Of a DNA stretch of 41,188 bases, positions 28,487 to 31,982 are shown piece after piece. The notes below the pieces were generated by a model. It was not told where the DNA came from. It saw only the letters and a program-made list of their open reading frames with translations, and did not search any database. Origin of the DNA: a bacterium. GTDB lineage: Bacteria > JAGOBX01. The DNA lies in NCBI GenBank assembly GCA_036733285.1, contig DAINAU010000011.1, forward strand, positions 1 through 41,188, given 5' to 3'. The position numbers and the translations under genes are program-made. Within the stretch, counting starts at the first letter, position 1; each line of letters starts with the position of its first letter.

Positions 28487-29098
28487 ATGGATTTAATAAG
28501 TTATATATATATTGATAAAATGCAGCCGCAATTTGCGGCTCTGACCGCGGCTCAAGCGGACGGCGATATACCCACAAGCGGGATGGCTGCGATGTGGATA
28601 GAAATCCAACCCGGAATAGAGATTAATAAAGTTCTGGATATAGCCGTAAAAACCGCGTCCGTCCGTCCTGCCGTTCTTCTTGAAGAACGGGAATACGGAA
28701 TAGTGGAATTTCATTCTTTTTCTCAAGACGATGTTTTAACTTCAGGCAATAAAATACTTGAAACTTATAATTTGACCTCTCAAAACGCTAAAAAACCGGA
28801 AGTTTTAACTTCCCAAATAATAACAAACATAAGCGATTATCACGCGCAGATAATAAATCGAAAGGCCGAAGGGTCGCTGCTGATTCCGGGTCAATCGTTG
28901 TATATTCTTGAAGTTCAGCCCGCGTGCTGGTCGACAATTGCCGCAAACGAAGCCGAAAAAGCTATTGACATTAATCTTATCCATTATAGATACCGCGGCA
29001 GATACGGACGTCTTCATTTGTCCGGAACCGAATCGCAGGTATTGGCGGCGAAAAACGCCATTGACGCTCTGTTAAATGCGGCTTTCTTAAAAAAATAA
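28487..29098 (+). CDS. Tandem BMC-domain protein (BMC-T, PduT/CcmO-like bacterial microcompartment shell protein); orphan
   Basis: Two consecutive segments match the BMC-domain pattern seen in PduA/PduT. Domain 1 is AMWIEIQPGIEINKVLDIAVKTASVRPAVL…YGIVEF…DDV. Domain 2 is LYILEVQPACWSTIAANEAEKAIDINLIHY…GRLHLSGTESQVLAAKNA. The pattern is (V/I)E-x-x-G/P…A-x-x-A-x-x-K-x-A-x-V…G-x-V…DV-x-x-V. This was recognised by eye only. Confidence 0.45.
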   Translation: MDLISYIYIDKMQPQFAALTAAQADGDIPTSGMAAMWIEIQPGIEINKVLDIAVKTASVRPAVLLEEREYGIVEFHSFSQDDVLTSGNKILETYNLTSQNAKKPEVLTSQIITNISDYHAQIINRKAEGSLLIPGQSLYILEVQPACWSTIAANEAEKAIDINLIHYRYRGRYGRLHLSGTESQVLAAKNAIDALLNAAFLKK

Positions 29099-29100
29099 TT

Positions 29101-30159
29101 ATGAAATCCGATATTTCTTCATTGCTGATTTTCAAAGCCGGAATTTTAAACGATTTTTTGAATATTGATAATACCGAAGTTTATCAAATAACTACCGGCG
29201 GTTCTTCGAGAAAATATTTTAGATTAAGTTCTGAAAATAAAAGTTATATCTATTGCGAATATGCCGATATTGCAGAACTTCAAAGGTTTTTAGACATAAC
29301 CGGAATTCTTCATTCGTCAGGAATAAACGTTCCTGAAATTTATCATACCGATTTATCTGAAAAATATTTGCTTATTCAAGATTTAGGGAAAAAAGTCATA
29401 TACGATAAAATTAAATCAAATGAAATAGAAACTCTTTATATTTATAAAAAAATAATCGACAGACTTATAGTTATGCAGACGGAATGCGGTCCGGCTTTAA
29501 TTAAAAAATATCCTGAACGGAAATTTGACGCGTCGGTCTATAAATGGGAAACCGAATATTTCAGGACTATGGTTTTAGACAAATATTTATCTGCTGATTA
29601 CGATAAATTAGAATTGACAAAATGTTTTAACCACATAGCCGAATATTTATGGAAACCCGAATGTTTAAAACCGGAGAAAACGCTGAATAAAAACGGTTTT
29701 TTTATTCATAGAGATTTTCAATCTCAAAATATACTGTATTCGGAAAAAAAAATTTATTTCATAGATTATCAAACCGCATATTACGGTTCTAATTTTTATG
29801 ATTTGGCTTCGCTGCTTTACGACCCTTATTCCGAAAATGAAATAAAAATATATTTCGGCGAATTATATAATTATTATAAAAATAAGTTTATTGAAAAATT
29901 CGAGTTGTTCGGTTCCGAAGAATTCGACAGACGGTTTGCCTTGACGTCTCTTCAAAGATTGATGCAGGCGAACGCGGCGTATGTAAAACTCGGACTTATT
30001 GAAAACAAATTATTTTTTAAACAATTCATTGATTCGGCGCTCGGAAAGATATATAATATTTTAATGAAAACAGATTTTAGCGCCGCGTCCGGCGCTGATT
30101 ATTTAAAAAGTTTATTTTCAAAACTTGAAAAGGAAGGAAAAATCAAATGTGCGGAATAG
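29101..30159 (+). CDS. APH/choline-kinase-family phosphotransferase; possibly an amino-sugar 1-kinase (AmgK/NahK-like)
   Basis: A Brenner motif (HRDFQSQN) and a DFG-equivalent (FIDYQ). The start is 2 nt after the BMC-T stop, and the end overlaps the glmS start by 13 nt. The amino-sugar assignment is inferred only from the coupling to glmS. Confidence 0.7.
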   Translation: MKSDISSLLIFKAGILNDFLNIDNTEVYQITTGGSSRKYFRLSSENKSYIYCEYADIAELQRFLDITGILHSSGINVPEIYHTDLSEKYLLIQDLGKKVIYDKIKSNEIETLYIYKKIIDRLIVMQTECGPALIKKYPERKFDASVYKWETEYFRTMVLDKYLSADYDKLELTKCFNHIAEYLWKPECLKPEKTLNKNGFFIHRDFQSQNILYSEKKIYFIDYQTAYYGSNFYDLASLLYDPYSENEIKIYFGELYNYYKNKFIEKFELFGSEEFDRRFALTSLQRLMQANAAYVKLGLIENKLFFKQFIDSALGKIYNILMKTDFSAASGADYLKSLFSKLEKEGKIKCAE

Positions 30160-31982
30160 TCGGTTATGCCGGATTCAGGCGTTCGATTAAAATTTTATTT
30201 TCCGGATTGAAACGGCTGGAATATAGGGGTTACGATTCTTCGGGAATATGCGTAATAAATAATTCCGGAACCGCGCTGCAAACCCATAAATCGCTTGGAA
30301 AAATAGCTGATTTGCAGAAAAAAATCGAGAATATAAAGGTTCCAGGAAACGTTGGAATTTCTCATACAAGATGGGCTACCCACGGAAAACCTTCGGATGA
30401 AAACTCGCATCCGCATCTTGACTGCTCGGAACAGTTCGCGATTGTTCACAACGGAATTATTGAAAATTACGCCGAAATAAAAAAAACGCTTATCTCCGAA
30501 GGTCATAATTTTAAATCAGAAACCGATACGGAAGTATTGATTCATTTGATAGAAAAAAATTATAAGACAAATCTTTACGAAGCTGTAAAATCAAGTCTTG
30601 AAACGGTCCACGGGTCGTATGCCGTTTGCGTGATTTCCTTAAAAGAACCGGACAAAATAATATGCGCCAGGTCGGGAAGCCCGCTTGTTATAGGCAAAGG
30701 CGAAAAAGAAAATTTCATAGCTTCGGATATGCTTGCTATATTGCCTTACACAAAAGACATAATTTTTCTCGACGATAGGGAAATCGCCGTAGTATCGCAG
30801 AACTCTATCGAAGTAACTGATTTTAAAGGCGTAAAACAAAATAAAGCCGTAACGAATATAAATTGGGACGCTATGAACGCCGAAAAAAAAGGATTCAAGC
30901 ATTATATGCTTAAAGAAATATTCGAACAACCGGAAGTAATAGCCGAAACAATAGACGATAAATACGACGAAGCTTCCGGAGAAATAAAATTCAGATACTG
31001 CAAAATTTCCCCTGAGTTTTTTAAAAGGATAAATAAAATATATATTGTGGCATGCGGAACCGCTTGGCACGCGGGTCTTGTTGGGAAATATTATCTTGAA
31101 GAATTTTGCGGGATTTCGGTTGAAACCGCAATCGCTTCGGAATTCAGATACAGAAAAGTTCCGATAGTCAAAAACGATTTGATTATTATTATTTCGCAGA
31201 GCGGCGAAACCGCCGACAGTCTTGCGGCGTTGAGAAGCGCAAAAGAAAAAGGAGCCGTATCGCTTGGAATCTGCAATGTCAGAGGAAGCGCTCTTTCAAG
31301 GGAATGCGACGGAGTGATTTATACGAACGCCGGACCGGAAATAGGAGTAGCTTCGACAAAAGCTTTTACCACTCAACTTTCGGTTATGTTTCTATTTGCC
31401 GTATATCTTGCAAAAATCAAAAAAACCATTTCAGAAATTGATTACAAAAATTATTTAAAGGAACTTTTATTAATCCCTTCAAAAATAAAAACGGCGCTTG
31501 AGCATACTGAATATTATAAAGAATTATCTTTAAAGTTTCATAACTATTCGGATTTTTTATTTTTGGGAAGACATTATAATTTTCCCATAGCTTTGGAAGG
31601 GGCTTTAAAACTTAAAGAAATTTCATATATTCATGCGGAAGGTTATGCCGCCGGAGAAATGAAACACGGTCCAATCGCTTTAATCACAGAACAAATGCCG
31701 GTATTGACAATAGCTACAAAAAGTTTTATTACTGAAAAAGTTATTGGCAATCTTCAAGAAGTCAAGGCGCGCGGCGGAATAACGATAGTCGTTGCAAACG
31801 ATTCCGTAGAAATTCCGGATAAACTCGCCGATTATAAAATTATTTTGCCTGAAACTATCGAGCCGCTCGCTCCGGTTATAAACGTAATTCCGTTGCAGAT
31901 TATAGCTTATCAGATTGCGGATTTTCTCGGTTGCGACGTGGATCAGCCGCGCAACCTTGCAAAAAGCGTAACTGTGGAATAA
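30147..31982 (+). CDS. glmS: Glutamine--fructose-6-phosphate aminotransferase (isomerising)
   Basis: An N-terminal MCGIVGY (Cys2 nucleophile), two SIS domains and a C-terminal …KSVTVE. 611 aa. Confidence 0.95.
   Translation: MCGIVGYAGFRRSIKILFSGLKRLEYRGYDSSGICVINNSGTALQTHKSLGKIADLQKKIENIKVPGNVGISHTRWATHGKPSDENSHPHLDCSEQFAIVHNGIIENYAEIKKTLISEGHNFKSETDTEVLIHLIEKNYKTNLYEAVKSSLETVHGSYAVCVISLKEPDKIICARSGSPLVIGKGEKENFIASDMLAILPYTKDIIFLDDREIAVVSQNSIEVTDFKGVKQNKAVTNINWDAMNAEKKGFKHYMLKEIFEQPEVIAETIDDKYDEASGEIKFRYCKISPEFFKRINKIYIVACGTAWHAGLVGKYYLEEFCGISVETAIASEFRYRKVPIVKNDLIIIISQSGETADSLAALRSAKEKGAVSLGICNVRGSALSRECDGVIYTNAGPEIGVASTKAFTTQLSVMFLFAVYLAKIKKTISEIDYKNYLKELLLIPSKIKTALEHTEYYKELSLKFHNYSDFLFLGRHYNFPIALEGALKLKEISYIHAEGYAAGEMKHGPIALITEQMPVLTIATKSFITEKVIGNLQEVKARGGITIVVANDSVEIPDKLADYKIILPETIEPLAPVINVIPLQIIAYQIADFLGCDVDQPRNLAKSVTVE

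Follow-up and report, generated by a model that had tools for sequence, protein, structure and literature searches.

A lone microcompartment shell protein gene of the CcmP/CsoS1D class beside an AmgK-like kinase gene and glmS

Does a shell protein gene that stands alone among housekeeping genes still encode a tile of a bacterial microcompartment (BMC)? This question is raised by a bacterial contig of 41,188 nt (DAINAU010000011.1, positions 1 to 41,188, assembly GCA_036733285.1, lineage JAGOBX01), which was analysed over its whole length and is called the window below. It carries a gene for a 203-aa protein resembling the tandem-domain shell proteins (BMC-T), directly followed by genes for an APH-fold kinase and for GlmS. 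Shell proteins are diagnostic markers of microcompartments, and catalogs classify only those loci that have both a hexamer (BMC-H) and a pentamer (BMC-P) gene. An earlier note, made from the sequence of the window, had described a lone BMC-T fused into an amino-sugar operon and had proposed either a satellite shell protein or a BMC-fold protein recruited for a role outside a compartment. With some reserve we consider it probable that the protein is a functional shell tile encoded as a dispersed singleton, that it belongs to an old and distinct subfamily with a remodelled pore, and that its coupling to the kinase gene and glmS is a lineage-specific synteny.

The class of the 203-aa protein was determined by several comparisons. 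The NCBIfam model for CcmP (NF053796) matched residues 2-197 with 224.3 bits (E=1.3e-66), and in precomputed annotation Pfam CsoS1D_N (PF27545) is assigned to this protein and carried by all its homologs. When searched with phmmer against PDB sequences, the protein aligned over its full length with HO-5816 (2.4e-54), CcmP (9e-52) and CsoS1D (4e-35), and RMM MSM0275 was recovered too. An AlphaFold2 monomer model was obtained with a predicted local distance difference test (pLDDT) score of 95.8 and a predicted template modelling (pTM) score of 0.90. The same pattern of strands (E) and helices (H) occurs twice in this model, once in domain 1 (residues 1-101: E2-9, H14-23, E34-41, H43-56, E60-66, E71-77, H80-93) and once in domain 2 (residues 102-203: E105-112, H117-124, E137-144, H148-159, E163-168, E174-180, H182-201). 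The sequences of the two halves align with each other weakly, although in register (24% identity, E=0.012). Foldseek superposed about 197 residues of the model on HO-5816, CcmP, CsoS1D and MSM0275 with template modelling (TM) scores of 0.94-0.97 and a root-mean-square deviation (rmsd) of about 1.0 Å, whereas the TM scores against other BMC-T classes (EutL, PduB, HO-5812) were only 0.36-0.53. Since the NCBIfam, Pfam, PDB, AlphaFold2 and Foldseek tests agree, the protein is a genuine BMC-T of the permuted double-stacking class, BMC-T(dp), of the CcmP/CsoS1D type. The two consecutive BMC-like halves that had been read from the sequence were thus recovered in both the model and the tandem-domain alignments, and the structure prediction suggested as a check gave a BMC fold. 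The comparators suggested with it, PduT and CcmO, turned out to be the wrong ones, as the closest structures are those of CcmP, HO-5816 and CsoS1D.

A search with the general BMC profile of Pfam (PF00936), which had also been proposed as a check, gave a mixed result. The score was below threshold (20.3 bits, cutoff 24.5) and came from the C-terminal half only (residues 140-195), with no match in the N-terminal domain (residues 1-101), whereas the CcmP and CsoS1D_N profiles do match. It is a recognised blind spot of PF00936 that it is weak on the 'cryptic' N-terminal domain of CsoS1D/CcmP-type proteins (PMC4207490). Because the dedicated profiles, the PDB homology and the model agree, we did not take the sub-threshold score as a refutation. 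Judged by its profile score, the protein nevertheless appears not to be a strict CcmP ortholog, as its 224 bits remain below the equivalog cutoff of 340.

The Lys-containing segments noticed earlier are present in both halves, DIAVKTASV at residues 51-59 and EAEKAIDIN at residues 155-163, and their lysines K55 and K158 are invariant in an alignment of 46 homologs (A1). We further compared 138 non-identical sequences, of which 14 belong to the clade of lone genes described below and 124 are embedded in loci with other shell genes. K55 is present in all of these (14/14 and 124/124) and K158 in 14/14 lone-clade and 123/124 embedded sequences. Such edge lysines of BMC domains make the lateral tile-to-tile contacts between shell proteins. 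The pore-gating pair Glu69/Arg70 of CcmP aligns without gaps with E67/R68 of the window protein, and both residues are invariant in the 46 homologs and in all 138 compared sequences. Glu69 and Arg70 have been described as the gating residues of CcmP (PMC5853799), and according to the 2021 BMC catalog conservation of the gating residues is universal among BMC-T(dp) proteins (PMC8217296). Altogether 21 positions are invariant across the 46 homologs. The gene is under strong purifying selection, with a ratio of nonsynonymous to synonymous substitution rates (dN/dS) of about 0.06 at a dS near saturation, and the constraint on it is as strong as that on GlmS. The stacking residue Arg127 of CcmP corresponds to R125. 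By homology, three chains would form a pseudohexameric trimer, and by analogy with CcmP two such trimers may be stacked face to face, as a dimer of trimers, around a chamber whose two pores would be opened and closed by Glu67/Arg68. A tile of this kind would be placed in a microcompartment facet and could serve as a passage for larger metabolites.

The two best characterised relatives resemble the window protein in different ways. CcmP of Synechococcus elongatus (PDB 4HT5, 5LSR) is homologous over the full length (45% identity, TM 0.94, rmsd 1.0 Å), has the equivalent Glu-Arg gate and stacking arginine, and is likewise encoded by a lone gene. Unlike CcmP, the window protein has Phe in place of the pocket residue His18, Glu in place of Ile68, Arg in place of Ile172 and Ile in place of the entrance residue Arg6; the Arg129/Arg130 cluster is lost and there is no carboxysome context. 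HO-5816 of Haliangium ochraceum (PDB 5V74, 5V75, 6MZU; present in the intact HO shell) is the best match in PDB by sequence as well as by structure (TM 0.96-0.97), and its edge and gate residues are identical. However, HO-5816-type genes are part of complete loci that also have BMC-H, BMC-P, aldehyde dehydrogenase and BMC-T genes, for instance in the Myxococcota (L033-L085), whereas the window gene is lone and its product carries the pore signature of the lone clade described below.

When the window was searched with BMC-H, BMC-P and aldehyde dehydrogenase profiles built for this study, no further match was found, and by Pfam annotation there were no BMC-associated enzymes among the other genes of the window. 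This agrees with the absence of BMC-H, BMC-P and signature enzyme genes that had been reported for it. The remaining genes are of housekeeping and signalling type only (TruB, RibF, S15, PNPase, M48 peptidase, PilZ, flotillin, methyltransferases, sigma-54 activators, TonB-dependent receptor, methyl-accepting chemotaxis protein (MCP), ECF transporter and XdhC). We then collected BMC-T(dp) loci from metagenomes and from genomes representative of species, 171 in all, and classified their flanks; for the genome search a 13-sequence alignment (A2) was used. The window protein falls within a monophyletic clade of 15 loci with a GC content of 29-63%, and in none of these (0/15) was a BMC-H, BMC-P or aldehyde dehydrogenase gene found within 10 kb. 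Outside the clade, shell genes are nearby in 61/66 comparable loci. Relatives at 40-48% identity belong either to Eut-like loci or to complete ones, in which BMC-H, BMC-P and aldehyde dehydrogenase genes are accompanied by a second BMC-T gene.

The lone clade is also marked by its pore loops. Residue 66, which corresponds to Ile68 of CcmP and flanks the gate, is Glu in 14/14 lone-clade sequences and V/I in 124/124 embedded ones. Residue 170 is Arg in 14/14, compared with F/V/Y in the embedded group, and corresponds to CcmP Ile172, the movement of which is coupled to gating via Phe67 (PMC5853799). R168 is found in 14/14 lone-clade sequences as well, whereas R175 is invariant in both groups. Further differences are H119 (14/14, mostly Q in the embedded group) and I28 (13/14, mostly L). 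An ion pair between E66 and R168/R170 is plausible from these positions, and the substitutions suggest that the gating behaviour or the permeant may be unlike that of CcmP- and HO-type tiles. The E66/R170 signature was not found in the independent lone lineages (L069, L072/L082, L077-79; Sericytochromatia, Eisenbacteria and others), which argues against convergence. The replacement of Tyr by N/W148 might be taken to mean that tiling is lost, but we rejected this, as L017 and L020 have the same PAVN motif and are near BMC-P and BMC-H genes.

Among the other loci, L069 (9995-10630, on a 185-kb contig) and L126 contain lone CcmP-like BMC-T(dp) genes with no shell genes within 10 kb; L069 is from Sericytochromatia, a non-photosynthetic relative of the cyanobacteria, and lacks the pore signature of the lone clade. 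A clear satellite case is found in a metagenome-assembled genome (MAG) of the Halobacteroidaceae (PWGV01), which has two near-identical BMC-T(dp) paralogs: the copy in L015 (1459-2067) is lone beside an 843-aa aminotransferase-V/amidohydrolase fusion, and the copy in L017 (5446-6087) is 4 kb from a BMC-P gene.

The statement that a lone BMC-T is not a described arrangement has to be divided. It does not hold for lone encoding as such, as a CcmP satellite locus is present in all 227 beta-cyanobacterial genomes analysed (PMC5853843), and in the FRAG microcompartments of many candidate phyla shell genes are spread over as many as six places, most of them far from the enzymes (PMC8217296). It does hold for the neighbours: a BMC-T next to an AmgK-like kinase gene and glmS is undescribed, and only that part of the arrangement is new. 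We found no paper in the literature that is dedicated to orphan BMC-T proteins or to Lindowbacteria microcompartments.

Of the window's clade the trees of the 2021 catalog include a single protein, A3G34_09790 of Ca. Lindowbacteria RIFCSPLOWO2_12_FULL_62_27, where it is flagged 'fragmented (sat) (omitted)' and 'outlier' and has a long branch (PMC8217296). The genome of this protein is represented by locus L009 in our set. From the same genome the catalog lists a BMC-P (A3G34_10820) and PduT-like BMC-Ts (A3G34_14855), which are labelled 'fragmented (sat)' (PMC8217296). At least one genome of the clade therefore has further shell genes far from its BMC-T(dp) gene, and of the two options of the earlier note the satellite is the better supported one. 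The window gene is like the FRAG type in being single in 41 kb among housekeeping genes, with 15/15 clade loci lone and with a clade member that is labelled as fragmented. The FRAG types are, however, defined by the BMC-P triplet (green/grey/orange clades) together with a standard BMC-H (PMC8217296 supplement) and none by the BMC-T(dp) subfamily of the window, the gene of which is known from 41 kb.

The kinase next to the BMC-T gene matches Pfam APH (1e-13). Its best NCBIfam models are those for AmgK, with 67 and 41 bits (NF045759 and NF045698) against cutoffs of 550 and 500. Among the best 120 matches listed, homologs at 30-35% identity are annotated as N-acetylmuramate 1-kinase, and a relative at 36% identity adjoins genes for a MurU-like nucleoside triphosphate transferase and NamZ; the sole match among PDB sequences was 3csv. 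The kinase is a family-level relative of AmgK, the anomeric kinase of N-acetylmuramate (MurNAc) and N-acetylglucosamine (GlcNAc). As in AmgK/MurU peptidoglycan sugar recycling, AmgK is the best curated model and a relative stands in a recycling context, but the window kinase scores far below the cutoff, no MurU-like gene was found in the window, and the gene is paired with glmS instead. On its profile scores the identity of the third gene as glmS is beyond question (TIGR01135, 812.9 bits, cutoff 418; NF001484, 838 bits), and the product has a GATase and two SIS domains and an N-terminal catalytic Cys after Met. Its start lies inside the kinase gene and is secure because the product begins with MCGIVG and reaches 813 bits on TIGR01135. 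Together, the kinase and GlmS would read as an amino-sugar module for the supply of UDP-GlcNAc. Proteins with SIS domains were also seen at other BMC-T(dp) loci: in L050 (5013-5918), L051 (8870-9841) and L054 (1889-2902), from two Nitrospinota MAGs and one labelled Proteobacteria, a protein of about 300-340 aa that is related to the isomerase half of GlmS is encoded just upstream of the BMC-T(dp) gene.

The order BMC-T, kinase and glmS is kept in four species-level lineages, namely the window, L006, L007 and L168, the last of which was recovered via the kinase search. The BMC-T/kinase junction varies among them (2-nt gap in the window, 4-nt overlap in L006, 9-nt gap in L007, 22-nt overlap in L168), while a 13-nt overlap between the kinase gene and glmS is common to all of them. 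Identities to the window are 85% for BMC-T, 85% for GlmS and 62% for the kinase in L006, 81%, 70% and 53% in L168, and 75%, 71% and 53% in L007. A metagenome scan yielded no relatives closer than 59%. In the rest of the 15-locus clade the triplet is not conserved. The gene downstream of BMC-T is glmS directly in L012, a GT1 glycosyltransferase gene in L013, an acetyl-CoA synthetase gene in the six-locus Lindowbacteria subclade (L003, L008, L009, L011, L086, L087; with an H+-pyrophosphatase gene inserted in L003), and a gene for an unknown 148-aa protein in L010, L014, L018 and L019. A search of the lone clade for a partner gene that is conserved throughout gave no candidate. These varied neighbours argue against a fixed functional partner. 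The proposed link to an amino-sugar operon is therefore seen in four close lineages and fails for the family as a whole, and the kinase/glmS coupling is a lineage-specific synteny and not evidence of a shared pathway.

The protein of 146-148 aa (L010 10712-11155, L014 11097-11540, L018 3290-3730, L019 5856-6302) is very well conserved, has no Pfam match and no relation to shell proteins, and is not encoded in the window. It is encoded 93-667 nt past the lone BMC-T(dp) gene and before a TPR protein gene, which in L014 and L019 is followed by genes for signal peptidase, PBP2 and FliS. For L006 (GCA_017999075.1), the closest relative, the MAG label 'Candidatus Dependentiae' is doubtful, because the gene content of the related window resembles that of a free-living motile diderm; its features include, at 5467-7482, 12504-14267 and 15717-18056, a TonB-dependent receptor, an MCP chemoreceptor, sigma-54 activators and a 7TMR-DISM histidine kinase.

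If the protein is a dispersed shell tile, its gene would be a singleton as ccmP is in cyanobacteria and as FRAG-type shell genes are, and other parts of the genome would hold the genes for the remaining shell proteins (BMC-H, BMC-P and perhaps a PduT-like BMC-T). The shell gene would then stand at the head of a housekeeping amino-sugar operon and could be co-transcribed with the kinase gene and glmS. Several observations weigh against a dispersed tile. For the window's genome the data comprise 41 kb, in which no other shell gene is seen, and the Lindowbacteria record is a single genome of a set that the catalog authors omitted as fragmented (PMC8217296). Lone position is a property of the clade and not of the class: among loci with at least 4 kb on each side, 7/7 clade loci are lone versus 5/66 outside (Fisher p=5e-7). 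Both pore loops have changed from hydrophobic to charged residues, and the change is fixed in the lone clade. The stacking arginine (CcmP R127) is retained in only 8/14 clade members, and the entrance arginine is lost in the window's subclade (I4), compared with R in 123/124 embedded sequences. By numbering offset, this position belongs to the five residues that have been proposed to form a conserved transport path in CsoS1D (PMC13316943). The fixed pore-loop changes and the arginine losses would also fit a protein that had departed from the organelle.

It is accordingly a possible, though unlikely, alternative that the subfamily has left the organelle and that its stacked-trimer chamber is free, binding a metabolite and serving central or amino-sugar metabolism as a sensor, regulator or scaffold, in a manner comparable to PII; this is the non-compartment role of the earlier note. 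A free chamber would agree with a monophyletic and always lone clade without cargo or shell genes in 41 kb of the window, with conservation at the level of housekeeping genes, and with the first position of the gene in operons with GlmS, acetyl-CoA synthetase or a glycosyltransferase. It would also agree with the clade-specific charges in both pore loops (E66; R168/R170), with the partial loss of stacking-region and entrance arginines, and with the replacement of the pocket residue His18 of CcmP by Phe/Leu in the clade, as the pockets of CcmP bind small ligands that correlate with the pore state (PMC5853799). However, the edge lysines used for tiling are still invariant, the neighbours vary by subclade and so point to no single pathway, one clade genome carries BMC-P and BMC-Ts, and the independent lone lineages show no matching changes. 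A more specific form, in which the whole E66/R168/R170 subfamily escaped the shell and became a gated ligand-binding double-trimer chamber heading operons for UDP-GlcNAc or acetyl-CoA supply, we regard as more doubtful still. If true, a BMC-domain protein would for the first time be seen to function outside a shell.

A slightly poorer candidate even than such an escape is a shell tile tied to its neighbours, that is, the conduit of an amino-sugar or sugar-phosphate microcompartment for which the kinase and GlmS supply or consume the permeant. The genes overlap or nearly touch and their order is kept in four lineages at kinase identities down to 49-53%; glmS is adjacent or near in L012, L013 and L019 too; SIS-domain proteins occur just upstream of BMC-T in the Nitrospinota BMC loci; and sugar phosphates have been proposed as a likely permeant of CcmP-like tiles (PMC8217296). 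Nevertheless, GlmS is a universal cytosolic housekeeping enzyme, encapsulation-type features were neither looked for nor seen, the Lindowbacteria subclade pairs BMC-T with acetyl-CoA synthetase instead, and the more acidic gate (E66, E69) would be expected to disfavour anionic sugar phosphates.

That the protein is a true CcmP ortholog and thus a component of a beta-carboxysome is very improbable. CcmP is its best NCBIfam model and the two are similar in sequence, structure and lone encoding, but the score remains under the equivalog cutoff, HO-5816 from a heterotroph metabolosome scores slightly above CcmP, the pore loops differ from those of CcmP, and the window has no carboxysome genes and a gene content like that of a motile heterotrophic diderm. 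A decaying, functionless remnant of a lost microcompartment locus, to which the lack of partners nearby might point, is refuted by the selection data, as the ORF (open reading frame) is intact in every relative and conserved as strongly as GlmS or more, with its low dN/dS and 21 invariant positions. The dispersed shell tile thus remains the reading that we prefer.

The features of the locus are collected in the table below. The coordinates of the three ORFs given in the earlier note were all reproduced, as were the spacings: the BMC-T stop codon TAA (29096-29098) is followed by 'tt' and then by the kinase ATG at 29101, which leaves a gap of 2 nt, and the kinase gene shares 13 nt with glmS. The AT-rich region upstream of the BMC-T gene is the likely operon promoter region. 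On the + strand it has sigma-70-like consensus matches at 28423-28452 and 28451-28478, which are consensus matches only in a region that is overall barely enriched compared with shuffles. No Rfam family reached its gathering score anywhere in the window (1-41188), and a glmS ribozyme is absent ahead of glmS.

Table. Coordinates of the features of the BMC-T(dp)-kinase-glmS locus in the window
Feature	Coordinates	Strand	Evidence or remark
Intergenic region, AT-rich, 109 nt	28378..28486	.	Between divergent 689-aa gene (-) and BMC-T gene
203-aa BMC-T(dp) shell protein gene, CcmP/CsoS1D class, tandem permuted BMC domains	28487..29098	+	Profiles, PDB homology, model
N-terminal 'cryptic' permuted BMC domain, residues 1-101	28487..28789	+	Model; full-length alignments to CcmP, HO-5816
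K55 codon, edge lysine of D51-x-x-x-K55 (domain 1)	28649..28651	+	Conservation
Gating hairpin tip E66-E67-R68-E69; pore gate E67/R68; E66 clade-specific	28682..28693	+	CcmP alignment, conservation
C-terminal permuted BMC domain, residues 102-203	28790..29095	+	Model; sub-threshold PF00936 match, residues 140-195
K158 codon, edge lysine of N154-x-x-x-K158 (domain 2)	28958..28960	+	Conservation
C-domain pore loop R168-Y-R170-G-R-Y-G-R175; R168, R170 clade-specific	28988..29011	+	Conservation
APH-fold kinase gene, AmgK family (by sequence), 352 aa	29101..30159	+	Pfam APH, NCBIfam AmgK, homologs
glmS, glutamine--fructose-6-phosphate transaminase, 611 aa	30147..31982	+	TIGR01135, NF001484, GATase and two SIS domains

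On the other side of the intergenic region, a divergent block of four genes (24354-28377, - strand) encodes the 689-aa protein, a PilZ protein, a 96-aa protein and an M48 peptidase. The 689-aa protein is Lys/Glu-rich with a hydrophobic N-terminus and has no Pfam match. The block is complete in L006, and the genes for the 96-aa and PilZ proteins are kept in L007. The position of the 689-aa gene is taken by a 672- or 679-aa gene in L007 and L168, of which the one in L007 does not cluster with the 689-aa protein. Within the lineage of the window the divergent block accompanies the BMC-T operon. Downstream, a 526-aa Band_7/flotillin gene (32013-33593, + strand) begins 30 nt past glmS and may share its transcript; in L006 an Era-like GTPase gene is found in its place, which puts the flotillin gene outside the conserved unit. 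Two further ORFs of the window, 100-1941 (- strand, 613 aa) and 2233-2796 (+ strand, 187 aa), had no Pfam match at E<=1e-5.

The novelty of the finding is modest, since lone encoding is already known for this class of proteins; what is added is arguably a recognisable new subfamily. It is a coherent group of strongly conserved gated shell trimers that are always encoded alone, and its sole representative in the 2021 catalog is one 'outlier' that was omitted there. Should these genomes hold further shell genes, the fragmented microcompartments of uncultivated phyla, which are poorly understood, would gain in the subfamily a marker with a distinctive pore. Should they lack such genes, the subfamily would provide the first case of a shell protein living outside an organelle.

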